NCBI GenBank assembly: GCA_036385045.1
Contig: DASVLC010000050.1
Location: 1,916-65,915 of the forward strand
Reading direction: 5' to 3'
From: Thermoanaerobaculia bacterium
Lineage (GTDB): Bacteria; Acidobacteriota; Thermoanaerobaculia; Gp7-AA8
Length of the DNA: 64,000 nt
The notes beneath the pieces are model-generated. The model was not told the origin of the DNA. It did no database searches and saw only the letters and a list, made by a program, of their open reading frames with translations. Shown piece by piece: positions 11,997 to 58,857 of this stretch (positions are counted from its first letter, which is position 1; each line of letters opens with the position of its first letter). Position numbers and translations under genes: made by a program.

Positions 11997-13025
11997 TCAA
12001 GTCGCCTGCAGTCCGCTCTCTTCCTCGGCACTCCTGGTGGGAAACAGCAACAGTGCCTCGGTGAGAACGTCGTCGACGGTGATCTCGTTCATGCAGCGGT
12101 GGTGACCGAGCGGGCAGACCCTCTCATAACAAGGCTGGCAAGGGAGAGTCCTCCGGACCACTCGGGACGCGCCGGGGATTACGGTGCGGTCAGGATCGGT
12201 GGGACCGAAAACGGAGACCGATGGAACTGCCAGCGCCGTGGCGACGTGGAGCGGCCCGCTGTCATTCGTGATCACGGCCGCACACTGCGACATCGCGGCT
12301 GCCAGTTCGAGCATGTCTCCTTCATGACCGACCATCGGCACACCGTTGCAGATCGTCGCAATCGCCTCGGCCTGGTGGCGCTCGCCGGGGCTCGTCAACA
12401 GAACGACGTCGTACGCCTCACTCCTCAGCCGCCGGATCAACTCGACGTAATGGTCATCTCCCCAGTGCTTCGCGCGACCGTAGAGACCTCCCGCATGGAT
12501 TCCGATGATCGGGCGGTCGAGGTGCAGACCGGCCGTTTCGAGTAGACGGCGCCCGCGCTCGCGAACTGAAGGGCGGAGGCGAATCGTCGGGATGTCGCCC
12601 ACGACGCGAGGGGCGTTGAGCGCGGTCAGTAGAGAGGTGTAGTCGTCGAGTTGATGGCCGCGGTGGTGCGGACGTGCAATCGGATGCGTCAGCAGCAGGC
12701 GGCGGAAGTCGGTCGGATAGCCCCATCGCTCTTCGACACCCGCGAGCAACGTGACGAGTGCAGACCGGAAGGAGTTCGGAAGGATCACTGCGCGGCGGAA
12801 CTGTCCGGCGCGAAGCAGCGCGATTCGCCGACGGCTCGAACGCGGCCAGCCGATGACCTGGCTGAAGATGCCTGTCGCCTCGAACAGCGGCTTGATGTTG
12901 GCGGGGACCGCGATGGCGATTCCCCCCTCACTGCGGAAGCGGTGCTGAAGGGCGCGAAAGGTCGGGAGGGCCAGGACGTTGTCGCCCACCCAGTTGAGGC
13001 CGATCACGACCGTCTCACAGTTCAT
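11997..13025 (-). CDS. glycosyltransferase family 9 (LPS heptosyltransferase-like)
   Basis: 342 aa, with C-terminal NDSGPLHVATALAVPSVSVFGPTDP typical of GT9. The start overlaps the upstream stop (ATGA). Confidence 0.8.
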   Translation of the reverse strand: MNCETVVIGLNWVGDNVLALPTFRALQHRFRSEGGIAIAVPANIKPLFEATGIFSQVIGWPRSSRRRIALLRAGQFRRAVILPNSFRSALVTLLAGVEERWGYPTDFRRLLLTHPIARPHHRGHQLDDYTSLLTALNAPRVVGDIPTIRLRPSVRERGRRLLETAGLHLDRPIIGIHAGGLYGRAKHWGDDHYVELIRRLRSEAYDVVLLTSPGERHQAEAIATICNGVPMVGHEGDMLELAAAMSQCAAVITNDSGPLHVATALAVPSVSVFGPTDPDRTVIPGASRVVRRTLPCQPCYERVCPLGHHRCMNEITVDDVLTEALLLFPTRSAEEESGLQAT

Positions 13026-14782
13026 TCGGCGGCTTCGCTCTCTTCCGTTCCCTTCCAGCGGTCATGCATCCAGAGCCAGAGCTCGGGACGCTCGACGATA
13101 CGCCGCGAGATGACGTCGTTGATCCGTTTCGTCAACTCCACGGGATCTCTCTCGGCTCCGGTCAGGAGATCGGCGCGGATCGGCCCCTCCAGCTCGAACC
13201 GATGCCCGAGACCGTCCGTGATGCAAAAACCGAACACGATGCTGGCTCCCGAGCGAAGTGCGAGCTTCGCAGGTGCGTCAGTCGTCCACGCGGGCCGGCC
13301 GAGAAACGGAACCAGCACACCCTCCCGAGGCTTCACCGCCTGGTCGGGCAGCAGCACAACGACCGCGTTCTCGCTCAGTCCCCTCATCAGCACTCGGGCC
13401 GCTTTTCTGCGATCGACCACGCGAGCGCCAGTATGCGCGCGAAGCCTCTGTAAGTCTTGTTCCATCAACTCGTTGTCGAGAGGACGGGCAACCGTACGGA
13501 TGTTCTTCGCAGCAGCCATGATCGCCAGTCCTGCGATCTCCCATCCGCCCCAGTGTGCGCTGATCAGCACCGTTCCTCTGCCTCGGGCGCTCGACTCGTC
13601 GATCAGATGCGTGTTGCCGACCGGACAACGCAGCGCAACCTCATCCAGCGACAGATTGCGCAGCTGAAGGACCTGTAGCACTTCCCGGCCGAAGTGTCGC
13701 CAGCAGTCGTTGAGGATCCGTCGCAGTTCTCTCCGGTCACGCTGCGGGAATGCTGCCGTCAGGTTCTTCATCGCGAGGCGATCGCGACGGCGGAGTACGT
13801 GGCGGGCGACCGAACCAAGACGCCGCCCCCATCGGACGGCAGTTTCTTCGCTGATCGACTGGACGAGCCGGTTGACGAGCCGGTAAGCGGCATACTCGAG
13901 TTTCTGGACGATGAGATTCTTCCGGCGTCGCTTCTTTCGCCGTTCCGGGTTGGCTGCCAGCTCGGCGACCTGCTCGAGGATTGCCGGATCGATCTCGAAC
14001 TCGGCGGGCACGGCGATCACTGAGCGGTCGTCGATCTTCACCGCATCCTTTTCGGTGGTGACCAGCGTTGCTCCGCGCGCCTCAGCCCGCATCGCCTCGA
14101 GATCAGCAGCCGTATAGCGGTGGTGATCGCGAAATCCCCTCGTCCCGCAAAGCTGCACGCCCGCAGCCCGCAACGATGCGAAGAACTGCTCGTTATCCGC
14201 AAGGGCAGAGAATGCGTAGACCTTCTGGGTCAGCAGTTCCGGGGGAACGAGTGTCCGCAGCCGTCGGGGAATCACATGATCGGCGTACTGCAGCGCAGAG
14301 CGGCCCTCCCGGAAGAAACGTGCGGGAGCATCGATCACGATGTCGAGATCGCGCTGAAGCTGCAGGTGCTGAAACCCGTCATCGAGGACGAATAAGTCGC
14401 AGTCGTTATCGCGTAGATAATGTGTTGCGGCATCGTATCTATTACTACTAACTAATATAGTTGCACCAGTTCTACTTTTAATGAGTACTGGTTCATCGCC
14501 ATATTTATCGACATCAAGGTTCCGGACTTCGCCCGCTTGATGACGCGTCTTCCGGCCATACCCCCTGGTCAGCACGACGACCCGAAGTCCGAGCGCATCG
14601 AGATGGCGGCAGAGGGCAATCACCGCAGGCGTCTTTCCCGTTCCCCCCGCGGCGATATTTCCGATCGAGACCACCGGACGCCGGAGTCTCTTTCCGTCGA
14701 GCAGCCCCGATCGATAGAGCGTCCGCCGCGCCCGGTTGATCGCGCGGTAGAGGAATTCGAAGGGTGCGGTTAATGGATTCAC
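13022..14782 (-). CDS. lpxK: fusion protein: tetraacyldisaccharide 4'-kinase (LpxK) + lipid A lauroyl/Kdo2-lipid IVA acyltransferase family (LpxL-like)
   Basis: The N-terminal ~280 aa have the P-loop GNIAAGGTGKTP and DDGFQH. A basic linker RRKKRRRK follows. The C-terminal ~290 aa have the acyltransferase HX4E motif (SAHWGGWE). Confidence 0.8.
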   Translation of the reverse strand: MNPLTAPFEFLYRAINRARRTLYRSGLLDGKRLRRPVVSIGNIAAGGTGKTPAVIALCRHLDALGLRVVVLTRGYGRKTRHQAGEVRNLDVDKYGDEPVLIKSRTGATILVSSNRYDAATHYLRDNDCDLFVLDDGFQHLQLQRDLDIVIDAPARFFREGRSALQYADHVIPRRLRTLVPPELLTQKVYAFSALADNEQFFASLRAAGVQLCGTRGFRDHHRYTAADLEAMRAEARGATLVTTEKDAVKIDDRSVIAVPAEFEIDPAILEQVAELAANPERRKKRRRKNLIVQKLEYAAYRLVNRLVQSISEETAVRWGRRLGSVARHVLRRRDRLAMKNLTAAFPQRDRRELRRILNDCWRHFGREVLQVLQLRNLSLDEVALRCPVGNTHLIDESSARGRGTVLISAHWGGWEIAGLAIMAAAKNIRTVARPLDNELMEQDLQRLRAHTGARVVDRRKAARVLMRGLSENAVVVLLPDQAVKPREGVLVPFLGRPAWTTDAPAKLALRSGASIVFGFCITDGLGHRFELEGPIRADLLTGAERDPVELTKRINDVISRRIVERPELWLWMHDRWKGTEESEAAE

Positions 14783-16919: not shown

Positions 16920-17663
16920 TCAGAACATGCCGTAGGTCGTGGCGCTGACCAGGGTCAGCGTGTCCTCGAGCCAATGAACGGACTTCTGCACGACGCAGTC
17001 GGTCGCGTGGCACTCGGCTCCGTGGACGATCTCGATACGACGCTCTCCCCGCAACTGTGACAGTGCCTCACGGTTCATCCGGAGCACCGGCATGTCCTTG
17101 ACGAGAAGAAGTGTCGGTGCCTTGACGTCCCTGAGATAGTCGACGGCGAGGTCGGTGCGGCCGTCGATGGAGACCACTGATGAAACAAGATCGGGACGCT
17201 GCGCCGCGGCGACGATCGCACCGGCCGCACCACTGCTCGACCCCAGGTAGGCCAGGGGAAGACCTGCTGTCTCGTGGTTCCGCGTCACCCAGTTCCCGAT
17301 GTCGATGAATCGCTGCGCGAGGAACTCGGCATCATTCCGATAGTGCGAAGTGCTGGCATCGAACTGGATCTCTTCTTCGCTCAGCAGCGGCACGTGCAGC
17401 GTCGCAATGTGTGCTTCGCGCAGGAGCGAGGCGATTGCGGCATCGCGCGTCTCGTCCGGCAGCGTCGGGAATGATGCGAAGACTGCCGCGGCGAGCGGCC
17501 GCGCAGGCATCACGAGGGAGCCCTGCAGCATCACCTTTCCAGTCCAGACGACGGTCGGTCCCGAAATTTCACTGAACGCGTTCATGAGTCGATCTCCCAA
17601 CGCTTTTGTAACTCCGGAGCCACGGATGAGAGGTGACCGGAAGAACCGTACGGTGTGACACAC
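16920..17663 (-). CDS. alpha/beta hydrolase (dienelactone hydrolase-like)
   Basis: Nucleophile elbow GSSSG and a C-terminal His region. An alternative start is MNAFSE at 17585. Confidence 0.6.
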   Translation of the reverse strand: MCHTVRFFRSPLIRGSGVTKALGDRLMNAFSEISGPTVVWTGKVMLQGSLVMPARPLAAAVFASFPTLPDETRDAAIASLLREAHIATLHVPLLSEEEIQFDASTSHYRNDAEFLAQRFIDIGNWVTRNHETAGLPLAYLGSSSGAAGAIVAAAQRPDLVSSVVSIDGRTDLAVDYLRDVKAPTLLLVKDMPVLRMNREALSQLRGERRIEIVHGAECHATDCVVQKSVHWLEDTLTLVSATTYGMF

Positions 17664-18418: not shown

Positions 18419-19252
18419 CTACCTTTCGGAGAATACGGGCTGACGTTTCGCGAAGAAGGCGTCGATTCCTTCAGCGAAGTTCGGTCCGTCGGCGATGCGT
18501 GCAAGCTCGTCGAGCTCCCGATCGAGATGAAAATCGAGCCGGTCGATTCCGGCTGCCTGGTTCATGAGATCTTTCGCAATTCCGAGCGCCTCGGTTGGTC
18601 CTGCGGCGAGCTGCCGCGCCGTCGCGAGCACCTGCTCGTCGAACGTCTCGACCGGATACACCGCCGTGACGAGTCCCCACTCGAATGCTTTCTTCGCATC
18701 GAGTTTGGGATTGAGGAACAGCATGTCCATCGCGCGCCGCAGGCCGAGAAGTCGCGGGAGGAAGAAGGTCGAGCTCTCCGCGCCGGTCAACCCGGTTTTC
18801 GCGTAGGCCCATTCGAACCACGACCGCTCGGACGCGATCACCAGGTCGCACGACATCGCAAGCCCGAATCCGCCGGCCGCTGCAATCCCGTCGACGGCCG
18901 CGATGAACGGCTTCGGCGCCCGACGGATCTCGGAGATCGTCGAATGGATGTACTCGAGGATCTGCTTGAAGATCTCGCCGTAGCCGGCCGGGATATCGCG
19001 CGCGCCCGGCTGAAGATAGCCGAGGTCGTTCTGCTCGCCACCGGCGCGGATGTACTTCAGATCGGCGCCGCTGCAGAAAACGCCGTTGGAGCCGCGCAGA
19101 ACCACGGCACGAATTTTCGAGTCGCGAGCGAAGAGAATTCCGGCCTTTCGCAGGTCACGAGCGGTGTCCACATCGAGCGAGTTGAAGCGCTCCCGGCGGG
19201 CGATCGTGATGATCCCGACCCCGCCGTCGACATCGGTTGTGATGTAGCTCAT
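18419..19252 (-). CDS. enoyl-CoA hydratase/isomerase (crotonase) family protein, HypX C-domain-like
   Basis: 277 aa from MSYITTDV, with crotonase motifs FCSGADL and DGIAAAGGFGLAMSCDL. The ATG overlaps the upstream stop (ATGA). The longer 490-aa track ORF is an Arg-rich artefactual extension. Confidence 0.8.
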   Translation of the reverse strand: MSYITTDVDGGVGIITIARRERFNSLDVDTARDLRKAGILFARDSKIRAVVLRGSNGVFCSGADLKYIRAGGEQNDLGYLQPGARDIPAGYGEIFKQILEYIHSTISEIRRAPKPFIAAVDGIAAAGGFGLAMSCDLVIASERSWFEWAYAKTGLTGAESSTFFLPRLLGLRRAMDMLFLNPKLDAKKAFEWGLVTAVYPVETFDEQVLATARQLAAGPTEALGIAKDLMNQAAGIDRLDFHLDRELDELARIADGPNFAEGIDAFFAKRQPVFSER

Positions 19253-20001
19253 GTGAGCGATCCTTCCGCGAGCTGCACGCCGGTTGCGATTGCTTCCGCC
19301 GAAGTCATTGGGTGAGGTTCGGAAAGAACGCTTTCGATTGCATGAACCGCCATCGATCCCCAGGCGTCGCGCATCATCCACTCGCGTTGCGCGTAGGCGT
19401 AGGCGCGAACGATGTCGGCATGCCCGGCGTGGGCAGCCGCGCGCGCGAACGGGGCGATCGGATAGGCTCTGCTGCGAATCACGATCGGTCCCGCATCGAG
19501 TTGCGAAGTCACCTTGTGAAGCGTGCTTCGGATCTCCAGTTCTCCGGCGACGATCGCATCCCGCGTCGAATGCAGGCCGACGTACCGCCGTTTGCCCTTC
19601 GAGTTCTCGATCGCCAGATCGCTGTCGTGGATGTTGAAGACCCGTCCGGGGAACGCGTCGAGCAGCACATCGGTGACGACATAGAGGTAACCCAGCAACA
19701 GCACGACATCGACGTCGAACTGCCGCAGGGAATCGACGGTCTGCGCGTCGAACGACGCACGGGCGTCGCGGTCCTTCAGCGAAAAGCTCCGCTCGCGATG
19801 AAACTCTCGGAGGGGGGACGTCAGTAGCGGCACGCCGGCGCGCTCGAAGACCTCCATGTCCTGACAGAACGGCTCCGTCGTGATCGCACAAACGACGTCC
19901 CAGCGGAGCGACCGCTTCGCATGTTCGAGCAGAGCGACGCTACCCGGTGCCCGGTGCGAGCAGAGGACGGCGACGCGAAGCGGTGACCGAAGGCTCAGCA
20001 T
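19249..20001 (-). CDS. PurN-like formyltransferase family protein, HypX N-domain-like
   Basis: 250 aa, aligns by eye to PurN (GRVFNIHDSDL vs GRLLNIHPSLLP; SQLDAGPIV vs DELDGGPVI). The Asn/His/Asp catalytic positions are kept. Confidence 0.7.
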   Translation of the reverse strand: MLSLRSPLRVAVLCSHRAPGSVALLEHAKRSLRWDVVCAITTEPFCQDMEVFERAGVPLLTSPLREFHRERSFSLKDRDARASFDAQTVDSLRQFDVDVVLLLGYLYVVTDVLLDAFPGRVFNIHDSDLAIENSKGKRRYVGLHSTRDAIVAGELEIRSTLHKVTSQLDAGPIVIRSRAYPIAPFARAAAHAGHADIVRAYAYAQREWMMRDAWGSMAVHAIESVLSEPHPMTSAEAIATGVQLAEGSLT

Positions 20002-21038
20002 ATGCGTGGCAGTGGCTCGCCTTCCGGCTCGGCCAGCAGTCTCCTTCCGAAGCCCGTGTCGAGAATGATCGAGCCGGGCCGCTCCGAAATGCAGGTTCCG
20101 ACGATGGCCGCGTTCCGGCCGAGCGGATGCTCGCGCAGAATGGCAACGAGCTTTTCGGCCACGTCAGGTCGCACCCCGATTACCGCTTTTCCTTCGTTCG
20201 CCACGTGCAGCGGATCGATTCCGAGAATCTCGCCGGTCGACCGAACCGCGTCGGTCAGCGGAACACGCTGCTCTTCCAGGACGACACCGACACTGCTCTT
20301 CTGTGCCATCTCATGCAGAGCGCTCGAGAGTCCTCCGCGAGTCGGATCCTTCATCGCCGTGATGCCGTCGCCGATCGAGTCGAGTACCGATGCAATCATC
20401 AGATTGATCGGCGCCACATCCGAGCGGAGATCCCCCTCGAGATCGAGACCATGTCGAGCCGCCATCACCGCGAGGCCGTGGTCGCCCATCGTTCCGGTCA
20501 CCACGATGCGATCTCCGACGCGGAGGCCGTTGTCCCGCACCACCCGCTTCGCCATCCCGATGCCGGTCGTGTTGATTACGATTCCATCGATCTCGCCGCG
20601 CCCCATTACCTTGGTATCGCCGGTGACGACGACCGTTCCCGCTTCCTTGCAGGTATCGACGAGCGAACGCTGAATCGCCTCGAGCTGGTCCATCGGGAAA
20701 CCTTCTTCGAGGATGACGCCGCAGGTGATACCGAGGAGACGCGTCGCTCCCATCATCGTGAGGTCATTGACCGTTCCGGCTACGGAGATGCGCCCGATGT
20801 CGCCGCCGGGGAAGAAGATCGGATGAATCACGTGCGAGTCGGTGGTGATCACGAGCCACTCGTTGCCCATCGGAATGGCGGCGCCGTCATCCATCGCTCC
20901 GAGACCGACGCCGTCGAACGGCATCGCGGCGAACTCGCGCACGAAGAGCTTCTCGATCAGCGCGCGCATCGCGCGCCCTCCGCCACCCTGTTTGAGAGTG
21001 ACACGTCCATAGGTTGGCAATGGCATTGCGGTGCTCAT
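19995..21038 (-). CDS. hypE: hydrogenase expression/formation protein HypE
   Basis: 347 aa with an AIR-synthase-like fold and the C-terminal PRIC motif. Confidence 0.9.
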   Translation of the reverse strand: MSTAMPLPTYGRVTLKQGGGGRAMRALIEKLFVREFAAMPFDGVGLGAMDDGAAIPMGNEWLVITTDSHVIHPIFFPGGDIGRISVAGTVNDLTMMGATRLLGITCGVILEEGFPMDQLEAIQRSLVDTCKEAGTVVVTGDTKVMGRGEIDGIVINTTGIGMAKRVVRDNGLRVGDRIVVTGTMGDHGLAVMAARHGLDLEGDLRSDVAPINLMIASVLDSIGDGITAMKDPTRGGLSSALHEMAQKSSVGVVLEEQRVPLTDAVRSTGEILGIDPLHVANEGKAVIGVRPDVAEKLVAILREHPLGRNAAIVGTCISERPGSIILDTGFGRRLLAEPEGEPLPRIC

Positions 21039-22186
21039 GACGTCACCTCGGCTGTGGGCACGGGTTCTCCGACATCGATGCCGCTGAGATCGGGAACGCC
21101 TCCGTAGAGGTGCCAGATCTTGCAGGTCCCCTCATTCGAGACCATGCAGGCGCCGACCGGCGTTTCCGGCACACACTCCTTGTTGAACAGCTTGCAGTCG
21201 ATCGGGTTGCGGATGCCGGCCATGATGTCGCCGCAGATGCACTGATTCGCGAACTGTGGCGGGGCGTAGTCCCAGAGGCTCTTCACGTCGATCTTGAAGC
21301 GCTTTCTGGCATCGAGGTGTGCGAACTCGTCGCGCAACCGGAGATTGCCGTTCGGAACGTGCGCGATGCCACGCCAGCGGCCACCGATGGGACGGAATAC
21401 GCGCCACAGCTGCTCCTGCGCCGCGAGATTGCCTTCCCGCGACACGCAGCGCGGGAACATGTTGACGACAGCCGGCTTTCCGTCGCGGATCAGCTTTACC
21501 AGCTCGACCACGCCAGCCAGGATGTCGAGCGGTTCGAAGCCTGCGACGACCACCGGAAGCTTATGGCGCTCGACGAACGGCTCGAAGACCGCCGAGCCGG
21601 TGATCGTCGCCGCATGTCCGGCGGCGAGGAAGCCTTCCACCCGCGACTCCGGCATCTCGCTCACGATCTCCATGACGGGTGGGATGTATTTGTGCGCCGA
21701 GAGGATCGAGAGATTCTTCGGGGGATTGTTCAGAATGATCGACGCCGTCGCAACCGCTGTCGTCTCGAAGCCGGTGGCGAAGAAGACGATCTCTTCGTCA
21801 GTGCTCCTTGCGAGCTCCACGACCTGCGAGGGGGAGTAGATGACATCGATCTTCCCTCCGCTCGCCTGAGCGTCGGCGAGCGACTGGACCGTCCCGGGCA
21901 CTTTCAGCATGTCGCCGTAGGTAGCGATCCGGATTCCGTCGCGCGCGAGCACGACCCCCTCGTCGACTTCCGGAACGTCGGTGACGCAGACGGGGCAGCC
22001 GGGCCCCATGATCACATTCAGGCTGCTTGGAAACATCGAACGAAGACCGAATTTTGCGATCGCCTGTTCGTGGCTTCCGCAGACGTGCATGACCGCGACT
22101 GGACGCCCGATCTCGTCCATCAGATGCGCGAGGGTCGCGGCAAGCTGCCTGGCCTTCGCGGGATCGCGGAACTTGAGCTCGCTCAC
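21035..22186 (-). CDS. hypD: hydrogenase formation protein HypD
   Basis: 383 aa, with GPGCPVCV and GFETT motifs. Confidence 0.9.
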   Translation of the reverse strand: MSELKFRDPAKARQLAATLAHLMDEIGRPVAVMHVCGSHEQAIAKFGLRSMFPSSLNVIMGPGCPVCVTDVPEVDEGVVLARDGIRIATYGDMLKVPGTVQSLADAQASGGKIDVIYSPSQVVELARSTDEEIVFFATGFETTAVATASIILNNPPKNLSILSAHKYIPPVMEIVSEMPESRVEGFLAAGHAATITGSAVFEPFVERHKLPVVVAGFEPLDILAGVVELVKLIRDGKPAVVNMFPRCVSREGNLAAQEQLWRVFRPIGGRWRGIAHVPNGNLRLRDEFAHLDARKRFKIDVKSLWDYAPPQFANQCICGDIMAGIRNPIDCKLFNKECVPETPVGACMVSNEGTCKIWHLYGGVPDLSGIDVGEPVPTAEVTS

Positions 22187-22470
22187 GACTTCACCGCTTT
22201 CGCAGCAGCCTCGATCTCGCCGCGGACATCAGCGGCCATGAAGTCGTTCTCGTCCTCCTGCATCAGAGTCTCGTAGAGGGCGAGTGTCTCGGCGATCGTC
22301 TCGGTCGGGATTCTCCGAATTGCGAAGCCGACGTGATTCAGCACGTAGTCGCCGGGGACGACCGGCTCATCGATGATGTCGAGGCAGACCTCTCTCCGCA
22401 CGCCCCAGAAGTCGACAGTGGCCATGCTGCCGTGAATCTCAATCACTTTTCCTGGAACACCTAGACACAT
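22183..22470 (-). CDS. hypC: hydrogenase assembly chaperone HypC/HupF
   Basis: 95 aa starting MCLGVPGKV. Confidence 0.9.
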   Translation of the reverse strand: MCLGVPGKVIEIHGSMATVDFWGVRREVCLDIIDEPVVPGDYVLNHVGFAIRRIPTETIAETLALYETLMQEDENDFMAADVRGEIEAAAKAVKS

Positions 22471-24824
22471 GACAGTTTCTCCCTGTTCGAGGAGCTGGAG
22501 CTCGCCACCTCTTCGGCTATGGCCAGCGTGGCTGTGAGCCCGCCGGTTCGTACGATCGCGTCGGCGACGACAGCCTGCCCGAGAGCAAGCCCTCCGTCGC
22601 CCGGCGGGATCGATTGGTTGAGGAACGTTTCGAAGCGTGATCGAAGCCCTCCGGCGATCCGTTCGGCGAGCATCGCGTTCTGAAAACAGCCTCCGGTGAG
22701 AACGACTGGAATGTCACCTCGCTGCTGGGAGGCGGCGCTCGCCAGCTCAATCGTCACGTCCGAGAGGGTGTTGTGAAAGCGGGCGGAAACCGTCGTCGGC
22801 GACACGCCATTGATGAGATCGACGACCGCACTCCGGACCAGAGGCCGCATGTCGATCTCCCAGGGACTGACCCCCTCACGAACGACCACTTCGTAGTGCC
22901 CCCGCTCCTCCGGGTCGGCAGCCATGTTCCAGAGCATCGCGACCTCGCCCTCGTAGCGGGAGACCGCCATGCCGAGACCGATCGCACCGAGGGCATCGAA
23001 GTACCGGCCGACTCCACGCGCGGGCGGTGAGTTGAAGCCGCGGGTGATCATCTGCCGCACCGAGTCGATGTTTCGCGCTTCGAGATCACGGAAGAGCGGC
23101 AGGTCCTGAAGCGGCGGCGCGCCCTCGAACGCCTCATCGATCAGCGCGAGCGCGACGCGCCACACCTGACGGATCGCCTGGTCTCCACCGGCCAGAGGAA
23201 TGGGCCGGAAGGTCGCGAAGCGCTCATATCCCGTCAAATCTGCGATCAGAATTTCGCCGCCCCACGAGGTCCCGTCAGTGCCGAAGCCGGTGCCGTCGTA
23301 CGCGACTCCGACGACCGGTCCATCGAGACCATGCTCAGCCATCGCGCTCGCGATGTGTGCATGGTGATGCTGCACTCCGATCAGACGGATCTCCTCGCTC
23401 TCGAGCGCCTGTGCGAAGCGTGTCGAGAAGTACTCGGGATGGAGATCGTGGGCGATCAGTTTCGGCTCCACGCCGATGAAGCTCTTCATCTGGGTCACGC
23501 TCGCCTCGAAGGCGCGGAGCGTTTCGTAGGTCTCGAGATCACCGATGTGCGGCCCGAGGAATGCCGACTGTCCCGCCCCGATACAGATGGCGTTCTTCAG
23601 GTGTGCGCCGACGGCGAGCACCGGCTCCTGGAAAGGCCGTGGCAGGTCGATCCCTCGCGGAACGTAGCCACGTGCGCGGCGCATGATCGTCGGGGCGCCG
23701 TTGATGACGCGCACCACCGAGTCGTCGGTCCGCGTCTCGATCATCCGGTCGTGCATCAGGAACATATCCGCGATTTCACTGAGCTGCTCGAGTGCGGCCT
23801 CGTTGGAGATCGCCATCGGCTCGTCGCTGATGTTTCCCGAGGTCATTACCAGAGGCACACTCGCTTCGCGGAGCAGCAGGTGATGCAGAGGTGTGTACGG
23901 GAGAAAGAGCCCGACCAGCGGATTCGCTCCCGAAACCTCGGCAGCGAGCTTCGAGTCAGGACGCCTCGCCACGAGCACGATCGGCCGTTCGACGGAGCGA
24001 AGCAGTGCACGCTCCTGATCATTGAGCTCAGCGAGACGCTCCGCCTCTGCGAGATCGCGGACCATGACCGCGAGCGGTTTCGCCTCGCGGCGCTTCCGCT
24101 CGCGCAGTCTCGTGACGGCGACCGATGAAGTCGCGTCGCAAGCGAGATGAAATCCGCCGAGTCCCTTCACCGCGACGGTGAACTGTGCGCGGAGTGAACG
24201 GCCGGCGAACTGAATTGCATCGTCGGCCGAAACGGGCCGGCCCTCAGAGGTCACCACTTTCACGCGTGGTCCGCAGCGTGGGCAGGCGTTCGGCTGTGCA
24301 TGAAAACGGCGATCGAGCGGATCGTCGTATTCGCGACGGCAGTCGACGCACATCTCGAACGACGCCATCGACGTCTTCGCACGGTCGTAGGGCACGTCGC
24401 GCACGATCGTGTAGCGCGGCCCGCAGTTCGTGCAGTTCGTGAAGGGGTAACGATAACGGCGGTTGGTCGGATCGAAGATTTCGGCAAGGCAGTCGGGACA
24501 GGTCGCGAGGTCCGGCGGAATCGACACGTTCCGCTCGGCTCCGACCTCACTCTCGACGATCCCAAAGCCCTGCACCTCTTCCACCGGAATCGATGTCCAG
24601 CGAATGTCGCGGATCCGCGAGGCCGGTGGTGTGTTCTGGGTCAGGTCGAGGGTGAAGGTCTCCACATCGCCGTCACTGCCGAATGCGTCGATCATCACGC
24701 CGGTGGAATCGTTCCGGACGTGGCCGTCGATCCTGTCGCGAATGGCGAGCTGGTAGACCCAGGGGCGGAACCCGACTCCCTGAACCACGCCGCGAATCTC
24801 AATGTGGCGTCCGATACGAGACAT
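22461..24824 (-). CDS. hypF: carbamoyltransferase HypF
   Basis: Acylphosphatase domain (IEIRGVVQGVGFRPWVY), two CxxC-x18-CxxC zinc fingers, then YrdC-like and Kae1-like domains. Start chosen at MSRIG (24824), not the track start at 24965. Confidence 0.9.
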   Translation of the reverse strand: MSRIGRHIEIRGVVQGVGFRPWVYQLAIRDRIDGHVRNDSTGVMIDAFGSDGDVETFTLDLTQNTPPASRIRDIRWTSIPVEEVQGFGIVESEVGAERNVSIPPDLATCPDCLAEIFDPTNRRYRYPFTNCTNCGPRYTIVRDVPYDRAKTSMASFEMCVDCRREYDDPLDRRFHAQPNACPRCGPRVKVVTSEGRPVSADDAIQFAGRSLRAQFTVAVKGLGGFHLACDATSSVAVTRLRERKRREAKPLAVMVRDLAEAERLAELNDQERALLRSVERPIVLVARRPDSKLAAEVSGANPLVGLFLPYTPLHHLLLREASVPLVMTSGNISDEPMAISNEAALEQLSEIADMFLMHDRMIETRTDDSVVRVINGAPTIMRRARGYVPRGIDLPRPFQEPVLAVGAHLKNAICIGAGQSAFLGPHIGDLETYETLRAFEASVTQMKSFIGVEPKLIAHDLHPEYFSTRFAQALESEEIRLIGVQHHHAHIASAMAEHGLDGPVVGVAYDGTGFGTDGTSWGGEILIADLTGYERFATFRPIPLAGGDQAIRQVWRVALALIDEAFEGAPPLQDLPLFRDLEARNIDSVRQMITRGFNSPPARGVGRYFDALGAIGLGMAVSRYEGEVAMLWNMAADPEERGHYEVVVREGVSPWEIDMRPLVRSAVVDLINGVSPTTVSARFHNTLSDVTIELASAASQQRGDIPVVLTGGCFQNAMLAERIAGGLRSRFETFLNQSIPPGDGGLALGQAVVADAIVRTGGLTATLAIAEEVASSSSSNREKLSCV

Positions 24825-24931
24825 GTATGGCTTTTCCTGACGTGACCAAGGTAGGTGGAGGGGGATGCAGACGCGCTGACTGTGCGCACAAGGGGGCGTG
24901 ATGACTGTCACGTGGTGATGTCTCGCGTGGT

Positions 24932-24974
24932 CTTGTGAGTCAAGAACCGGGCGCGGCGCGGGCACGGAGTCGGG
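24932..24974. repeat. Family A repeat, copy A3 (half element)
   Basis: CTTGTGAGTCAAGAACCGGGC matches the reverse complement of the A2 right arm. Confidence 0.55.
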
Positions 24975-26584: not shown

Positions 26585-27264
26585 ACCGCTCGATCTTCGG
26601 CCGTCTGGTCGCGAAGGACCTCTACTTCTATCGCTGGATGTTGGCCATTGCCCTGATCGCGGGAGTGTTCTCGCTCGTGATCGCGAGCTTCAGCGAGGGT
26701 GACGGTGTCCGCACCGGGATGAACCTCGGCATGCTCCTGTTCATCACGACGATCATCACATTCGGAATCTTCATCTCGATGGCGGGCATCCTCAAGGAGA
26801 AGCAGGACAAGTCGCAACTATTCGTGCTGAGCCTTCCGGTGTCGGCGGCGCAGTACTCGGCCGCGAAAGTCTGCGCGGCGCTGATCGCGTTTCTCGGGCC
26901 GTGGCTCGTGTTGACGGGCGGGGTCATCGTGGCGACTGCGGCGACGGGCCGGCCGAGCGGCGGAATCCCGTTCTTCGTCGTGATGATGACGTTCTTCCTG
27001 GTCACTTTCTGCGTACTGCTGGCCATCGTGGCCATCACGATGTCCGAGGTCGGGGCGATCACCGGGATTCTGATCACGAATCTATCGGTAACGCTGTTCT
27101 TCTTCAGCATCGGCCGATCTCCCGATATCGCGGGACGCGCCGATGAAGCGGTGGCGACCTGGAGTCCCGCGATCCTGACGCTGCTGACCGCCGAGATCGC
27201 GCTGATCCTGCTGTCGGTGGCGCTGGCAATCTACCTTCCTTCCCGCAAACGGGACATCACTTGA
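26581..27264 (+). CDS. ABC-2-like integral membrane permease
   Basis: 227 aa from MNRSIFGRL with ~6 TM. ATGA overlap with the upstream ATPase. Confidence 0.6.
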   Translation: MNRSIFGRLVAKDLYFYRWMLAIALIAGVFSLVIASFSEGDGVRTGMNLGMLLFITTIITFGIFISMAGILKEKQDKSQLFVLSLPVSAAQYSAAKVCAALIAFLGPWLVLTGGVIVATAATGRPSGGIPFFVVMMTFFLVTFCVLLAIVAITMSEVGAITGILITNLSVTLFFFSIGRSPDIAGRADEAVATWSPAILTLLTAEIALILLSVALAIYLPSRKRDIT

Positions 27265-29408
27265 GAGGATCTGCAATGAGTTCACAGGAACGCCTTCACT
27301 CGCTCGATGCGGTGCGCGGAATCGCGCTTCTGCTCGGCATCGTGCTCCATGCGACGATGTCCTTCTTTCTCGCAATCCCGGCGCAGGACAGCTCGCAGAG
27401 CACGACGCTCGCGGTCACCTTCTACGTGCTCCACATCTTCCGCATGACGCTGTTCTATGTGATCGCCGGTTTCTTCGCACACATGGTCTTTCATCGTCGC
27501 GGACCGCGCGCGTTCATCAAGGATCGCGCGAAGCGCATCGTTGTGCCGATGATCGCCGGCTGGATGATTCTTGCGCCGGCCACGATCGCTGCGGTGATCT
27601 GGGGGCTCTCGCGTACCTTTCGGGACGGACCGCCTCCGGGCGCGGAAGCTCTCGGGCCGCAGGGGTTCCCGCTGACGCATCTCTGGTTTCTCTACTACCT
27701 CTGTATCTTCTACGCGCTCACGCTGACGTTGCGCGCAGGGTTCGCCGCACTCGACCGGAACGGCGTACTGAGGAAGCGCGTCGATGCCATCGTCGGCGGA
27801 GGGATCACGAGCCATCTCGCGCCGCTGGCACTTGCCGCGCCGACGTTCGCCGTCCTCGCTCTCGACCCGTCCTGGACGGTCTGGTTCGGCATCCCTACTC
27901 CCGATACCGGACTCGCGCCGAAGCTGCCTGCGCTCGTGGCATACGGAACCGCATTCGTCCTCGGATGGTTGCTGCATCGACAGGCGCTGCTGCTCGGTGT
28001 GCTCGAGAGGCGGTGGCGCAGCAGTCTGGCCATCGCCGTGGCGCTCACGGTGGTCTGCCTGTCCATCGTCGGCATGACGCCGAGGATGACGGCTCTGACC
28101 GTCATCGACGGCGGCGACGCAATGCGACTCCTGTACGCTGCCTGCTATGCGCTCTCGATCTGGTTCTGGACGTTCGGCTTCATCGGCGCGGCGATGCGAT
28201 TCTTCTCCGGCGCGAGCGCCGTGATCCGCTATCTCGCCGACTCCTCGTATTTTCTCTATCTCGCGCACGTGCCGATCGTTTTTGCGCTGCAGGTTCTTCT
28301 GATGGACGTGCCGCTGCACTGGACGGCCAAGTTTCCGGCGATTCTCGCGATCACGCTCGCGGTGCTGTTCGCCAGCTATCACTATCTCGTGAGGCCGACG
28401 GTGATCGGCGAGATCCTGAACGGCCGCAGGCACCCACGCCGCAGACGAAGCTCCGTGGTGAGCGCTTCGATTCCGGCGACACCTGCAGAACCTTCACCTG
28501 GTGCTGCGTTGGATGACGGCGCGCCCGAACCGATTGCTGGCCTGGTAAATGTGACCAAGCGCTATGGCGAGGTGCTCGCGCTCGACGACGTGAATCTTGC
28601 CGTGCGGTCGGGCGAGCTGCTTGCCCTGCTGGGACCGAATGGTGCCGGCAAGACCACCGCGATCGGCCTCTGGCTCGGAACTCTCGAGCCCGACGCCGGG
28701 GTCGCTTCCGTCATGGGTGGCTCACCCCTCGACGTAAACAGCCGCCTCGGTATCGGCGTGATGATGCAGGAGGTCGCGCTCGCGCCGACGCTCACCGCGA
28801 AGGAGCTCGTCGCTTTGACGACGAGCTACTATCGCAGTCCGCTCGATGTGGACTCGGTCATCGAGCTCACGGGTATCGAATCAATTGCGAACCGGCGGTA
28901 CGCCAAGCTGTCGGGTGGCCAGAAGCGCCAGGTACAGTTCGCCGTTGCGGTCTGCGGACGTCCGCAGCTCCTGTTCCTCGACGAACCGACCGTCGGTCTC
29001 GACGTGGAAGCGCGCGAGACGATGTGGAGAGCCATCCGTTCGCTGATCGAGGATGGATGCTCGATCGTGCTCACGACGCACTATCTCGAGGAGGCGGAAG
29101 CACTCGCCGATCGCGTTGCGGTCCTCGCGAAGGGGAGAGTGATCGCTGAAGGAAGCGTCGATGAGATGCGATCGCTCGTGACGCGTACACACATCAGCTG
29201 TGCGTCCACGCTTGCGGTGGACGACATTCTGCGCTGGCCAGGTGTCGTCGATGTCGTGCGGAAGGACCAGGTAGTGCACGTCACAGCATCCGACACGGAG
29301 ACCGTCGTGCGCCGGATGCTCGCCGAGGACAGCACGCTCCATCAACTCGAAGTCAGACAGGCGAGTCTCGCCGAGGCGTTCAGTGAGCTCACGAAGGAGG
29401 CAGCATGA
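27261..29408 (+). CDS. fusion protein: acyltransferase family 3 membrane domain + ABC transporter ATPase
   Basis: The N-terminal ~390 aa are polytopic with LDAVRGIALLLGIVLHA, typical of acyltransferase_3. An Arg-rich linker follows. The C-terminal ATPase has GPNGAGKTT, LSGGQKRQ and LLFLDEPTVGLD. The start is TTG 27261 or ATG 27276. Confidence 0.8.
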   Translation: MRGSAMSSQERLHSLDAVRGIALLLGIVLHATMSFFLAIPAQDSSQSTTLAVTFYVLHIFRMTLFYVIAGFFAHMVFHRRGPRAFIKDRAKRIVVPMIAGWMILAPATIAAVIWGLSRTFRDGPPPGAEALGPQGFPLTHLWFLYYLCIFYALTLTLRAGFAALDRNGVLRKRVDAIVGGGITSHLAPLALAAPTFAVLALDPSWTVWFGIPTPDTGLAPKLPALVAYGTAFVLGWLLHRQALLLGVLERRWRSSLAIAVALTVVCLSIVGMTPRMTALTVIDGGDAMRLLYAACYALSIWFWTFGFIGAAMRFFSGASAVIRYLADSSYFLYLAHVPIVFALQVLLMDVPLHWTAKFPAILAITLAVLFASYHYLVRPTVIGEILNGRRHPRRRRSSVVSASIPATPAEPSPGAALDDGAPEPIAGLVNVTKRYGEVLALDDVNLAVRSGELLALLGPNGAGKTTAIGLWLGTLEPDAGVASVMGGSPLDVNSRLGIGVMMQEVALAPTLTAKELVALTTSYYRSPLDVDSVIELTGIESIANRRYAKLSGGQKRQVQFAVAVCGRPQLLFLDEPTVGLDVEARETMWRAIRSLIEDGCSIVLTTHYLEEAEALADRVAVLAKGRVIAEGSVDEMRSLVTRTHISCASTLAVDDILRWPGVVDVVRKDQVVHVTASDTETVVRRMLAEDSTLHQLEVRQASLAEAFSELTKEAA

Positions 29409-34063: not shown

Positions 34064-35167
34064 CTAAGCCGTCTGCAGGATCCGAACGGCACGTCTCCAG
34101 TGACGTCGGGAGTTCCGCACGTATCGATACGCCATCCGTCGCGTCTTTCGCCAGGCCATTCCCTCGGCCCGTTCCTCCAGCGCACGGCGCCAGAGCGCAA
34201 ACGCCTTCTCGAGTTGAGCCGAGGCAACCTTCAGCCGGCGCCTCGCCTCGTCGGCGAGCGAACCGGTCGCAGACTCGATCTTCATCTCGACGACGCGGAC
34301 CGCTGCACTCATCCGTGCCTGCTCGATCTGCGGGAGCGGCGTCGCCAGCAACCCTTTCGCGAGTCCGATGTAGTGTAAGCCTCCGATCCACCACTTCGCG
34401 GGATCCCACTGGTACCAGCGGATTCCGTTGCGAAAATCGGATGGGAAGCGATGGTGGAACGAGTGATACCCCTCGCCGAGTGTGACGAGCGCAACGAGCC
34501 AGTTGTCACGCGCCGACGCTTCGGCGTTGAACTCCGGTTTTCCGAGAGTGTGAGCGAGTGAATTCACGAAGAACGTCGTGTGGTGAATCACGACGATTCG
34601 GGTGAAGCCGCCCCAAAGCAGTCCGGCGATCGGGTCGCCGAAGGCTGCTCCAATCAGCGTCGGCAGACCGAATCCACCGAGAATGAGAATCTGCTTGTGC
34701 CAGCGGTGCTGCCACATCACGATCCGATTCGCCTTCAGGTCGGGCGAGTTCGCGAACGTGTCGTCGCGCTCATGGTTGCGGAAGAAGATCCAGAACATGT
34801 GCGCCCACCAGAAGCCGCGACGGATGTTGTACGGATCCCAGTCCTTGTCGGCGTACTTGTGATGCACCCGATGGCTCGATGACCACCAGAGAATCGAGTT
34901 CTGCGCCGCCATCGCCCCGAAGAAGGCGTAGAACAACTGGACGATTGGCGAGGCCTCGTAGGTCTTGTGGGAGAAGAAACGGTGGTAGCCGGCGCAGATC
35001 GAGATTCCGACCGCGAGGTACATGCCGACCATCAGAACCAGCATCCACAACTGGAAGCCCGCATACCAGGTGTACGCGGCGGTACCGATGATGCCGATGA
35101 TGGGCGTGAGGGTCAGGAACGCAATATTGACCCAGTCTTTTTCCTGCTGCTGCTGAGCTGCTTTGAT
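34064..35167 (-). CDS. acyl-CoA (delta-9 type) fatty acid desaturase
   Basis: His boxes HRFFSH, HRVHHKYAD and SFHHRFP. The conserved N-terminus (KDWVNIAFLTLTPIIG) extends upstream of the track start at 35050. The proposed start is ATC 35167, with GGAGG at 35175-35179. Confidence 0.8.
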   Translation of the reverse strand: MKAAQQQQEKDWVNIAFLTLTPIIGIIGTAAYTWYAGFQLWMLVLMVGMYLAVGISICAGYHRFFSHKTYEASPIVQLFYAFFGAMAAQNSILWWSSSHRVHHKYADKDWDPYNIRRGFWWAHMFWIFFRNHERDDTFANSPDLKANRIVMWQHRWHKQILILGGFGLPTLIGAAFGDPIAGLLWGGFTRIVVIHHTTFFVNSLAHTLGKPEFNAEASARDNWLVALVTLGEGYHSFHHRFPSDFRNGIRWYQWDPAKWWIGGLHYIGLAKGLLATPLPQIEQARMSAAVRVVEMKIESATGSLADEARRRLKVASAQLEKAFALWRRALEERAEGMAWRKTRRMAYRYVRNSRRHWRRAVRILQTA

Positions 35168-35791: not shown

Positions 35792-35899
35792 CCACGACCC
35801 GTGCGAGCGCAAAGGCGCATCAATCACCCCCGCGCTCTAAGTGTGCCGATGGACGAATGCGCGTGCATTCGCGCCTTGCACGGCCCCTCACCCGGCCTT

Positions 35900-36060
35900 C
35901 GGCCACCCTCTCCCCGCCAGAATCGCGGGGAGAGGGGCGGCGAACCCCGCAGGGAGACGGACAACAAATCGCCGGACGGTCGTAGCGCAGGCGTCCTCGC
36001 CTGCCGTACCGCGGATGTCCTCGTCCGCACGCGGACGTCTCGCCAGGCGTCTCGCCCGCC
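35900..36060 (-). repeat. Family C repeat, copy C3 (inverted, rearranged modules)
   Basis: 35981-36029 is the reverse complement of the C1/C2 core (CGTAGCGCAGGCGTCCTCGCCTGCCGTACCGCGGA). The CCCTCTCCCCGC..GCGGGGAGAGG hairpin is at ~35907-35936. Confidence 0.65.
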
Positions 36061-36166
36061 GGGCGCCGAGGGGTGTCCTGCCGCGTCTGTGACAGCCGGC
36101 ACGTTCCGGGCGCTGCCGCTGTTGTTTTGATCTCTGCGATAGACTGCCCCGCCGCAAGGAGATCAC

Positions 36167-38443
36167 ATGGCCGACAACATCCGCGACGAGGCGCTCGACT
36201 ACCATTCGAGCGGCCGCCCCGGCAAAATCGAGGTCGTCCCGTCGAAGCCGACGGCGACGCAGCGCGACCTCTCCCTCGCTTACACCCCGGGGGTTGCCCA
36301 ACCCTGTCTCGAAATTGCTGCCGACCCCTCCGCCGTCTACAAATACACCGCCAAAGGGAACCTGGTTGCCGTCATCAGCAACGGAACGGCAGTGCTCGGG
36401 CTCGGCAACATCGGACCCGCTGCCGGCAAGCCGGTGATGGAAGGCAAGGGGGTGCTCTTCAAGCGCTTCGCCGACATCGACGTCTTCGACATCGAAGTCG
36501 ACACGCGCGATACCGAGGAGTTCATCCGCTGCGTCAAGCTGCTCGAGCCGACCTTCGGCGGGATCAATCTCGAAGATATCGCTGCCCCGGAATGCTTTGA
36601 GATCGAAGATCGCCTGAAGAAGGAGATGAAGATCCCGGTCTTCCACGATGATCAGCATGGGACGGCGATCATCTCGGCCGCAGCCCTGTTGAATGCCCTC
36701 GAGGTCGCCGGAAAGAAGATCGGAGAGGTTCGGATGGTGATCTCCGGCGCCGGCGCCGCCGCAATGGCCTGCCTCCGTCTCTACATCGACCTTGGCCTCA
36801 CCAAGGAGAACGTGCTGCTCGTCGACAGGCACGGCGTGATCTACAAGGGACGCAAGGACGACATGACTCCCTACAAGACGGAGTTTTCGGCGGAGACGGA
36901 TCGGCGCACGCTCGCCGATGCGATGCGCGACGCCGATGTCTTCATCGGCTTGTCGGCTGGCGGTGTCGTCAGCCAGGACATGGTGCGCTCCATGGCGAAG
37001 GATCCGATCGTTTTCGCCATGGCGAATCCCGATCCCGAGATCCCGTATGACCAGGCAGTCGAGGCTCGCGAAGACGTGATCATGGCAACCGGCCGGTCCG
37101 ACTTCCCGAACCAGGTAAATAACGTACTCGGCTTCCCGTTCATCTTCCGTGGAGCTCTCGACTGTCGCGCGACGACGATCAACGACGAGATGAAACTCGC
37201 CGCGTCCCACGCGCTTGCCGATCTCGCAAAACAGGACGTCCCCGATTCCGTTCTGCGCGCCTACGGCAAGGACCGGATCACCTTTGGCCGCGAGTACCTG
37301 ATTCCCAAGCCCTTCGATTACCGCGTCCTGCTGAATGTCCCGGTAGCCGTCGCACGCGCGGCGGCGGAGACGGGAGTCGCGCAGCAGCCGATTCAGGACT
37401 ACGACGCCTACCGCCGGCAGCTCGAGAACCTTCTCGGACGCTCGCGCGGCTTGATGCACGAGATTTACGAACGGGCCCGGCAGAGCCCGAAACGGATCGT
37501 TTTTCCGGAAGGGGAGCAGGAGAAGATCATCCGCGCAGCGAAGATCCTCACGGACGAGAAGCTGGCACACCCGATCCTGCTGGTTCGCCGCGAAGAGATC
37601 GCGACTCTGCTCAAGAAGTACCAGATCGACGAGACGAAGGTGACCATCATCGACATTGCCGAGTCCGACCGGACCGAGGCTTACATCGACCGGCTCCATG
37701 AGTTGCGCAAACGGCATGGTCTTACCCGCGCCGACGCCCAGCGGGTCCTCAACAGCCGGAACTACTACGCGATGATGATGCTCGAAAGCGGGGACGCCGA
37801 TGGCGTGATCTCCGGGCTCGGTGCCTACTACCCCGCGACGCTCCGTCCCGCTCTGCAGATTCTGAAGACACGACCTGGTGTCCGTCACGTGTCGGGCGCC
37901 TATCTGCTGATGTTCAAGAACCGGACGGTTCTTCTCGCGGACACGACCGTGAACATCAACCCTGACAGCGAGACACTCGCCGAGATCGCCGAACAGACGG
38001 CGGAAACTGCGAGACGGTTCAATCTCGAGCCGAAGATCGCGATGATCTCGTTCTCGAACTTCGGCTCGACCAACGATCCCGCGGCCGAGAAGGTTCGCAA
38101 CGCGGTTCGCATTCTGAAACAGCGCCGGCCCGATCTCATCGTCGATGGCGAGATGCAGGCCGACACCGCAATCTCTCCCGAGATCGCCCAGCAGGATTAC
38201 CCCTGGAGCTCCATTCAGGGCGACGCCAACGTACTGGTGTTTTCGAGTCTCGACGCTGCCAACGCCGCTTACAAGCTGCTGTGGCGTCTCGCCGGAGCGG
38301 AGGTCATCGGTCCGATCCTGCAGGGAATCTCGAAACCGGTGCACGTTCTCCAGCGCGGAGTCGATGTGAACGACATCGTCAACATGGCCGCGATTGCGGT
38401 GCTCGACGCGCAGGAGGCCGAACGGAAGGGCAGCGAAGGTTAG
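36167..38443 (+). CDS. maeB: NADP-dependent malic enzyme (malic enzyme + phosphotransacetylase-like domain)
   Basis: 758 aa. The N-terminal malic enzyme region has a Rossmann motif (ISGAGAAA). The C-terminal ~330 aa are PTA-like. Confidence 0.9.
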
Positions 38444-38625
38444 GCTGAGTGCAAGAATTGCACGGGGTCGTCGTGCACGTTCAGCCCGATCAGGACATCG
38501 AGCATGCATTTATGCATGAGCGAGAAATTTCGGGCGCTGCACGTTTTGTGAAAGCGGCGTCTGCGGCCGCCGCACTCCAAAGCGCTTCGCGCGACGACCT
38601 GGGCGGCAGCGGCCGGCGCCCCGCC

Positions 38626-44196: not shown

Positions 44197-44200
44197 CGCC

Positions 44201-57244: not shown

Positions 57245-57314
57245 CCATCAACAGTCAGGGCCAGAACGTCCTGAGAGCCTCCGGACCGGGTTGCGCCCGG
57301 CAGATGTGAGACCG

Positions 57315-58826: not shown

Positions 58827-58857
58827 GTACGCGCCGGTTGCAGTAGACTCATTCCGA

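Follow-up and report, generated by a model that had tools for sequence, protein, structure and literature searches.

How do [NiFe]-hydrogenase maturation systems without HypX obtain the carbon monoxide (CO) ligand of the active site? The metabolic origin of this ligand has been solved only for HypX-bearing organisms. CO is the sole site ligand without a donor enzyme among the products of hypA-F, and a 2025 review names its origin in organisms without HypX as the key open question (PMC12134894). We investigated this question in a 64,000-nucleotide stretch of a Thermoanaerobaculia genome (contig DASVLC010000050.1, assembly GCA_036385045.1; hereafter, the window), where a hyp operon includes genes for a 250-amino-acid PurN-type formyltransferase (FT) and a 277-amino-acid crotonase (ECH). 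Our analysis suggests that FT and ECH are probably a non-orthologous two-component analogue of HypX that would synthesize the CO ligand of the [NiFe] site. The initial annotation of this DNA had read the pair as a split HypX and knew of no earlier description of one. Our full-text literature search, with subscription-only papers outside its reach, found no description of this pair, nor of a hyp-linked stand-alone crotonase or PurN-type transferase.

We examined the layout of the operon by open reading frame (ORF) listing and translation together with Pfam and NCBIfam scans. The six genes lie on the minus strand in the order hypF-hypC-hypD-hypE-FT-ECH. FT begins with the ATG at 20001, giving a 7-nucleotide overlap with the hypE stop, and the FT stop and the ECH ATG share 4 nucleotides, ATGA at 19249-19252, read directly from the sequence. 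The lengths of both proteins and both overlaps agree with what the initial annotation had described. It had also placed the pair inside hypFCDE. The pair does belong to the hyp operon, but here it is appended after hypE, and a position between hypD and hypE occurs in some other lineages.

We then assessed whether this arrangement recurs. An FT profile was run against one genome per GTDB species and gave 76 loci, whose neighbouring genes were called by tblastn with the window proteins. An ECH-seeded scan of metagenomes gave 80 loci, 68 of which had enough upstream DNA to be informative. The results showed that hyp genes were adjacent at all 76 FT-seeded genome loci and that hypE lay upstream of ECH at all 68 informative metagenome loci, so that the co-occurrence with hyp genes, which the initial annotation had proposed as a check, holds across genomes. 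ECH was directly beside FT in 74 of the 76 FT-seeded loci. The 7-nucleotide hypE/FT overlap recurred in 70 of 86 loci, and the 4-nucleotide FT/ECH overlap in 63 of 96. No canonical HypX was found within 10 kb of any recovered locus, and no paa or pur genes lay close to FT and ECH.

According to the record titles, the FT-seeded loci come from Thermoanaerobaculia and other Acidobacteriota, from Gemmatimonadota, and from one metagenome-assembled genome (MAG) each of Nitrospiria, Actinomycetes and a deltaproteobacterium; the archaeal carrier of FT and ECH is an isolate, the haloarchaeon Natronomonas sp. LN261. The proteins nearest to FT and ECH of the window come from Thermoanaerobaculia MAGs. Three gene orders were observed: hypFCDE-FT-ECH, hypCD-FT-ECH-hypE-hypF (L045, L055, L066, L068, L071) and, in Natronomonas (L075), hypCDE with a neighbouring ECH that is encoded on the other strand and diverges from FT. 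Because there are three orders, one of them in an archaeon, the association with hyp outlasts both rearrangement and the divide between bacteria and archaea. Three long contigs carried hypFCDE-FT-ECH, one of them with a [NiFe] large subunit and protease upstream and hypA/hypB right after ECH. In L003 and L086 the module stands between hypE and hypA/hypB, downstream of genes for a hydrogenase large subunit and the matching protease. Taken over all loci, the gene arrangement goes far beyond what chance would give, and the linkage to hyp is not accidental. These findings support FT and ECH as a real, translationally coupled, hyp-dedicated module. The two FT-seeded loci without ECH, both from Acidobacteriota, look like decaying hyp clusters: L014 (9700-10700) keeps FT and only short hypC and hypE remnants, and in L077 (7600-11400) hypF is followed directly by FT, with ECH and most of hypCDE missing.

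The two genes are not equally constant. FT stood between hypE and ECH in 29 of the 68 informative metagenome loci (~40%) and was absent upstream of ECH in 39 (~57%); three ECH proteins on long contigs also lay directly 3' of hypE without FT. Where a partner was present between hypE and ECH, it was always a formyl-tetrahydrofolate (formyl-THF)-type transferase. ECH homologues shared 60-80% identity across phyla and FT homologues 34-59%. ECH homologues also outnumber FT homologues; the relatives of FT number in the hundreds and are named PurN in their source databases. In a neighbour-joining tree, FT-linked and FT-less ECHs were interleaved, and a search for residues separating the two groups, as a hint of an interface, found none. 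FT is therefore an optional insert that has been repeatedly gained or lost, or it is encoded elsewhere in the genome. These results indicate that ECH is the constant hyp partner, and that FT is optional and tightly coupled when present. At one further locus (L083:6615-8990), an intact ECH follows a called gene in which remnants of hypD and hypE are attached to the N-terminal portion of a [NiFe] large subunit; an internal deletion or a misassembly would account for its appearance.

To identify what kind of crotonase ECH is, we compared it with solved structures. Its membership of the superfamily, whose marks are the ECH_1 fold, an N-terminal region that binds CoA and oxyanion-hole motifs, is clear from the Pfam match (Table 1) and from Foldseek TM scores of 0.7-0.85 to crotonases. 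The top match in the PDB was PaaG (E 4e-37), followed by many other crotonases. PaaG/oxepin-coenzyme A (CoA)-type crotonases (E. coli 4FZW_C, T. thermophilus 6SLA) are the best overall match and share with ECH the fold and the oxyanion-hole motifs GAD and AAAGGG; F59-C-S-G-A-D64 and A124-A-A-G-G128 are conserved in ECH. However, the NCBIfam scores of ECH were about half their cutoffs (159.8 vs 345.15 for PaaG, TIGR02280), a Phe of PaaG is replaced by Tyr150, and the catalytic Asp of PaaG (D136 in T. thermophilus) by Ala158. ECH also adds invariant Glu147, Trp148 and Glu159; Asp136 of ECH is invariant as well.

Tyr150 and Glu159 belong to the invariant motif F146-E-W-A-Y150-x-K-T-G-L-T-G-A-E159-S-S-T-F and were conserved in 151 of 151 distinct ECH sequences. 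BLASTP, MAFFT and hhalign agreed in aligning them with Tyr439/Glu449 of Cupriavidus necator HypX and with Tyr416/Glu426 of Aquifex HypX, and in ECH as in Aquifex HypX the Tyr follows the CD motif by 14 residues. Of the five solved crotonases that match ECH best, four have Phe or Trp in place of the Tyr and all five have Cys, Gly or Thr in place of the Glu; the exception, 4jfc, has Tyr at the first position and Gly at the second. Mutagenesis and structure of HypX tie this Tyr and Glu to formyl-CoA decarbonylation (PMC6802093; PMC12134894). In R. eutropha, mutants in the two residues had the HypX-minus phenotype, and the crystal structure places both residues next to the thiol of CoA (PMC6802093).

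FT carries the loop N123-I-H125-D-S-D-L129. As the initial annotation had read it, FT keeps the Asn/His/Asp positions: N123, H125 and D169 align with the catalytic triad N106, H108 and D144 of E. coli PurN. In alignments of the FT family (120 sequences), H125, D126 and D169 were invariant and N123 was present in at least 90%. The closest PDB matches, by sequence profile and by Foldseek with the AlphaFold2 (AF2) model, were PurN (Foldseek E 2e-15, profile E 2e-18), then PurU, then ArnA/FMT. The model adopts the PurN fold with a mean confidence score (predicted local distance difference test, pLDDT) of 93.6. FT thus resembles PurN (E. coli 1C2T) in the triad and the formyl-THF binding core. Nevertheless, it scored only 66.8 bits on the PurN profile TIGR00639 against a cutoff of 150.1, matching positions 2-152 of 192. 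The phosphate loop for glycinamide ribonucleotide (GAR), S-G-x-G-S-N in PurN, is replaced in the FT family by S15-x-R17-A-P19-G20 (within L-C-S-x-R-A-P-G), 8 residues are inserted after HDSDL, which contains the catalytic His, a conserved family motif, AYAYAHREWMMRDxWG, lies in remodelled C-terminal helices, and FT was never found in a purine gene context. Full-length members measured 190-335 amino acids among the best 150 cluster representatives. The next tier outside the hyp-linked FTs consisted of divergent PurNs, among them proteins of ~400-440 amino acids fused to 5-formyl-THF cyclo-ligase (MTHFS; P0312, P0341, P0342, P0368) and a 697-amino-acid protein joining a divergent PurN-like domain to PurD (P0384); all five were below the TIGR00639 cutoff.

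We next compared the pair with HypX (HoxX) of the aerobic H2 oxidisers C. necator, Rhizobium leguminosarum and Aquifex aeolicus (PDB 6J0P). HypX forms CO from N10-formyl-THF via formyl-CoA and is needed for hydrogenase maturation in air; CoA is constitutively bound in a continuous cavity joining its two active sites. The reaction of HypX has been demonstrated (PMC12134894). FT-ECH resembles HypX in its genetic linkage to hypCDEF and in its slot right after hypE in hypFCDE (on C. necator pHG1, hypX follows hypE by 11 nucleotides). A formyltransferase-fold part precedes a crotonase-fold part in both, FT retains equivalents of the catalytic His (H125) and of the second Asp (D169), and the crotonase Tyr and Glu stand at equal spacing from the CD motif. 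On the other hand, HypX is one polypeptide, whereas FT and ECH are two separate ORFs. The N-domain of HypX is of FMT/FDH/ArnA type with a His74-Asp80-Asp109 triad, while FT is PurN-type, and no Asp was found at its His+6 position (the Asp80 equivalent). C. necator HypX matches PF00551 and PF02911 (Formyl_trans_C); FT contains PF00551 only. ECH lacks the long C-terminal extension of the HypX C-domain, most ECH loci dispense with the formyltransferase, and the hydrogenases near FT/ECH are group 1c/1e-like rather than O2-tolerant group 1d.

The profile comparison with HypX, proposed in the initial annotation for both proteins, divided them. ECH aligned with C. necator HypX at 28% identity over 191 residues (E 3e-12; hhalign probability 97%), with Tyr and Glu in register, but FT bore no specific resemblance to the N-domain. 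The HypX C-domain itself is remote from any solved crotonase (best E 2e-8). Aquifex HypX was not matched by FT, ECH or the FT profile in PDB sequence searches at the thresholds used, and HypX was not among the top 50 Foldseek matches of either AF2 model, which were generic PurN and crotonase folds only; the fold search therefore could not separate HypX-like proteins from ordinary ones. Judged by sequence membership, FT-ECH is not HypX (multi-gene organization, non-FMT transferase, similarity rank), not PurN (no GAR loop) and not PaaG (no catalytic Asp), with scores below the cutoffs and the wrong gene context for the latter two. Of the reading as a split HypX, the domain types and their order, the slot and the Tyr/Glu pair stand; the PurN type of FT, the closer match of ECH to PaaG and the lack of obligate pairing do not fit it.

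On these grounds we propose a two-step scheme. FT would make formyl-CoA by moving the formyl group from N10-formyl-THF onto the CoA thiol, and ECH, to go by its conserved residues, would bind formyl-CoA and split it to CO and CoA-SH. Tyr150 and Glu159 would act as the base system, as proposed for Tyr416/Glu426 of HypX. FT and ECH may form a complex, and the CO would pass to iron on the HypC-HypD scaffold, encoded just upstream, by analogy with the HypC/HypD/HypX complex. ECH would be the core component and FT an optional feeder. At loci without FT, metabolism or an unlinked enzyme would have to provide the formyl-CoA. Such loci imply either an unlinked formyl-CoA source or a different acyl-CoA substrate; this is where the proposal is least certain, and the leading rival explanation builds on it. 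We raise as a tentative extension, to which we give somewhat less than even weight, that stand-alone ECH may be a widespread HypX-independent formyl-CoA decarbonylase for ordinary, non-O2-tolerant group 1 [NiFe]-hydrogenases in bacteria and at least one archaeon, with FT as an add-on connecting it to the folate one-carbon pool.

Several observations weigh against the formation of CO by FT and ECH. FT showed no specific similarity to the HypX N-domain (BLASTP E 0.038, hhalign probability 6.7%), and the overall similarity of ECH to PaaG-type isomerases and hydratases exceeds that to HypX. Convergence could account for the shared Tyr and Glu, or the two residues could take part in another acid/base reaction; Glu159 sits next to the site of the catalytic Asp in PaaG. 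For ECH the AF2 model was mediocre (pLDDT 69), with values below 50 in the active-site loops (residues 151-158). With no adjacent FT at 39 of the 68 ECH loci, formyl-THF is not demonstrably a universal source. As to physical coupling, no FT-ECH fusion was found in an exhaustive profile search of 1.84 billion representatives, in which none of 89 clusters at E<=1e-30 was fused to a crotonase. Tblastn and Pfam searches of the 64-kb window found no maturation protease, no hypA/hypB and no hydrogenase structural genes, and the absence of the structural genes also counts against the proposal. HypX is known to be required for O2-tolerant hydrogenases, and the hydrogenases associated with the module elsewhere fall outside that class.

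Some of these points would suit a maturation factor acting on something other than formyl-CoA. ECH might decarboxylate, hydrolyse or isomerise another acyl-CoA, or its substrate might be a thioester or thiocarbamate carried by the HypE or HypC protein, and FT might formylate another acceptor, such as a thiol or amine of a Hyp protein. Crotonase-fold decarboxylases, for example methylmalonyl-CoA decarboxylase, use a catalytic Tyr. The frequent absence of FT, the lack of residues distinguishing FT-linked from FT-less ECHs, the invariant Glu147 and Asp136 and the location of Glu159 are all compatible with such a role. We nevertheless consider it unlikely, though a serious alternative. The exact Tyr-Glu pair is shared with HypX and its spacing matches, any partner gene lying between hypE and ECH encodes a formyl-THF-type transferase, a sign of formyl chemistry, and CO is the one ligand that hypA-F leave without a donor (PMC12134894). 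That the pair descends from HypX by genuine fission, its orthologous domains separated into two genes, would explain the domain types and order, the post-hypE position and the catalytic Tyr and Glu. It is improbable: FT is PurN-type and has no Formyl_trans_C, in contrast to the FMT/FDH-type N-domain, ECH matches PaaG-type and other solved crotonases far better than HypX, and the similarity ranks of both proteins argue against it. Nor did a natural split HypX come to light elsewhere: of about eight short HypX C-domain proteins on contigs over 9 kb, the two examined were both truncations, one by deletion and one by transposase insertion. Least credible of all is that a PurN paralogue of purine synthesis and a PaaG or enoyl-CoA hydratase of fatty-acid or phenylacetate catabolism merely travel with the hyp operon. 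Databases do call FT phosphoribosylglycinamide formyltransferase and ECH 2-(1,2-epoxy-1,2-dihydrophenyl)acetyl-CoA isomerase, PurN and PaaG are the best PDB matches, hypE is itself a PurM homologue, and purM-purN adjacency is common. However, both proteins fall far below the PurN and PaaG cutoffs (66.8 vs 150.1 and 159.8 vs 345), the GAR phosphate loop is missing from FT, Ala takes the place of the catalytic Asp of PaaG in ECH, and no paa or pur genes lie nearby. Hyp linkage, moreover, holds at every locus, in several phyla and three gene orders, with conserved start/stop overlaps. The initial annotation had held that ordinary closest homologues without hyp linkage would undo its reading; the closest PDB homologues are indeed ordinary, but hyp linkage is found at every locus recovered and the decarbonylase Tyr and Glu of HypX are present.

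The two truncated hypX genes (L167:4131-6146 and L168:214-2712) lie in betaproteobacterial-type clusters, one adjoining a DDE transposase and the other following a garbled hypE region. Both are listed in databases as stand-alone 'enoyl-CoA hydratase-related' proteins.

The initial annotation had further suggested a distinct aerobic route to the CO ligand, and we therefore examined the hydrogenases encoded beside the module. Those of Thermoanaerobaculia were Hyd-2-like (group 1c), matching E. coli HybC at E 3e-225 and including a subunit of NrfD type. In Gemmatimonadota they were A. vinosum-like (group 1e), and that of Natronomonas was only distantly related to solved enzymes. Supernumerary Cys residues had been expected, but the CxCC motif of the six-Cys proximal cluster was absent from all adjacent small subunits. 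It follows that the module goes with the Hyp machinery rather than with any recognised class of O2-tolerant hydrogenases, and we dropped the aerobic rationale: the small subunits lack the six-Cys motif, and Hyd-2 and the A. vinosum enzyme are what the large subunits look like. In four small subunits (L066, L068, L130, L153) the second Cys of the proximal CxxC is replaced by Asn (C-A-G-N-T-E-S), and in L008 the second canonical Cys is replaced by Asp (C-T-G-D). We take these replacements to resemble the Asp-ligated proximal cluster of group 1h enzymes. The window also encodes a membrane fatty-acid desaturase (34064-35050, minus strand; PF00487), which belongs to an O2-dependent enzyme class and is a weak hint that the organism meets oxygen.

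The pair, at present mis-annotated as PurN and PaaG, occurs in phyla that are abundant in soils and sediments as well as in a haloarchaeon available in culture, and it reproduces the catalytic signature of HypX with different protein lineages. If the proposed role is correct, one or two members would be added to the Hyp maturation toolbox, and the chemistry from formyl-THF through formyl-CoA to CO would have been assembled at least twice. Smaller, separable parts, including a 277-amino-acid decarbonylase, would become available for enzymology and heterologous hydrogenase production, and the annotation of hundreds of recovered database proteins would be corrected. We rate the stand-alone crotonase as the more important and more surprising component. 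Should it act alone as suggested above, a CoA-thioester route to the carbonyl ligand would be far more general than the HypX paradigm, and the 'HypX-independent' CO source would gain a concrete, testable enzyme. The FT-less version raises the question of where its acyl-CoA substrate originates.

The coordinates of the operon and of the two ORFs that follow it are given in Table 1.

Table 1. Genes of the hyp operon and of its downstream extension in the window
Feature	Description	Coordinates	Strand	Evidence
hypF	Carbamoyltransferase, first gene of the operon	22461..24965	-	TIGR00143 768 bits (cutoff 466); Pfam Acylphosphatase, zf-HYPF, Sua5, HypF_C
hypC	Fe(CN)2CO scaffold chaperone	22183..22470	-	PF01455 4e-26; TIGR00074 72.6 bits
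hypD	Fe-S scaffold protein	21035..22186	-	PF01924 1e-123; TIGR00075 392 bits
hypE	Carbamoyl dehydratase, cyanide ligand donor	19995..21038	-	TIGR02124 381.5 bits (cutoff 251.6)
FT	PurN-derived, proposed formyl-CoA-forming feeder, 250 amino acids	19249..20001	-	PF00551 (Formyl_trans_N) 9.8e-17
ECH	Crotonase fold, proposed formyl-CoA decarbonylase, 277 amino acids	18419..19252	-	PF00378 (ECH_1) 7e-46
ORF228	His-rich polytopic membrane protein, 228 amino acids	17726..18412	-	SLAPDHW + HHVDHLRGVEHDHGEGTHHHHKK; DsbD_2 24.6 bits (weak)
ORF247	Alpha/beta-hydrolase-like, GSSSGA elbow	16920..17663	-	Weak Abhydrolase/Esterase matches

The operon runs on past ECH, with ORF228 starting 6 nucleotides 3' of it. 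ORF228 has a His-rich loop (HHVDHLRGVEHDHGEGTHHHHKK) and no above-cutoff Pfam or NCBIfam match, and in most loci of the Thermoanaerobaculia type a homologue lies 3' of ECH or hypB. ORF228 probably encodes a Ni/Co transporter and belongs to the same operon as ECH. ORF247 is kept downstream only in the closest relatives (for example L001, L005, L006, L011 and L013), and its membership of the module is uncertain. A scan of the operon for promoters and terminators gave no signal above shuffled expectation.

The closest relatives examined (L001, L005, L006, L007, L011) resemble the window in having no hydrogenase structural genes or hypA/hypB, and in the more distant L003, L008 and L012, hydrogenase structural genes, a maturation protease or hypA/hypB adjoin the same operon. 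The hydrogenase of the window organism is either encoded elsewhere in the genome or lost. The surroundings of the operon are housekeeping genes: KdtA, an LpxK-LpxL fusion, a heptosyltransferase, HflX, HemA/C/D, ABC transporters, MnmA and AlkA.

Four long ORFs (560-870 amino acids) had no Pfam match at E<=1e-4: 35888-38509 (minus), 43925-45985 (plus), 50799-52682 (minus) and 57255-58943 (minus). Some of them may be overlapping-frame artefacts of high-GC sequence. Amid ABC-2 transporter genes, a 715-amino-acid ORF (27261-29408, plus strand) fuses an Acyl_transf_3 membrane acyltransferase to an ABC-transporter ATPase. The LpxK fusion is a single 586-amino-acid ORF (13022-14782, minus strand) in which LpxK, the tetraacyldisaccharide 4'-kinase, is joined to a domain of the lipid A acyltransferase kind; the same fusion occurs in L001, and the two are separate genes in L003 and L005.

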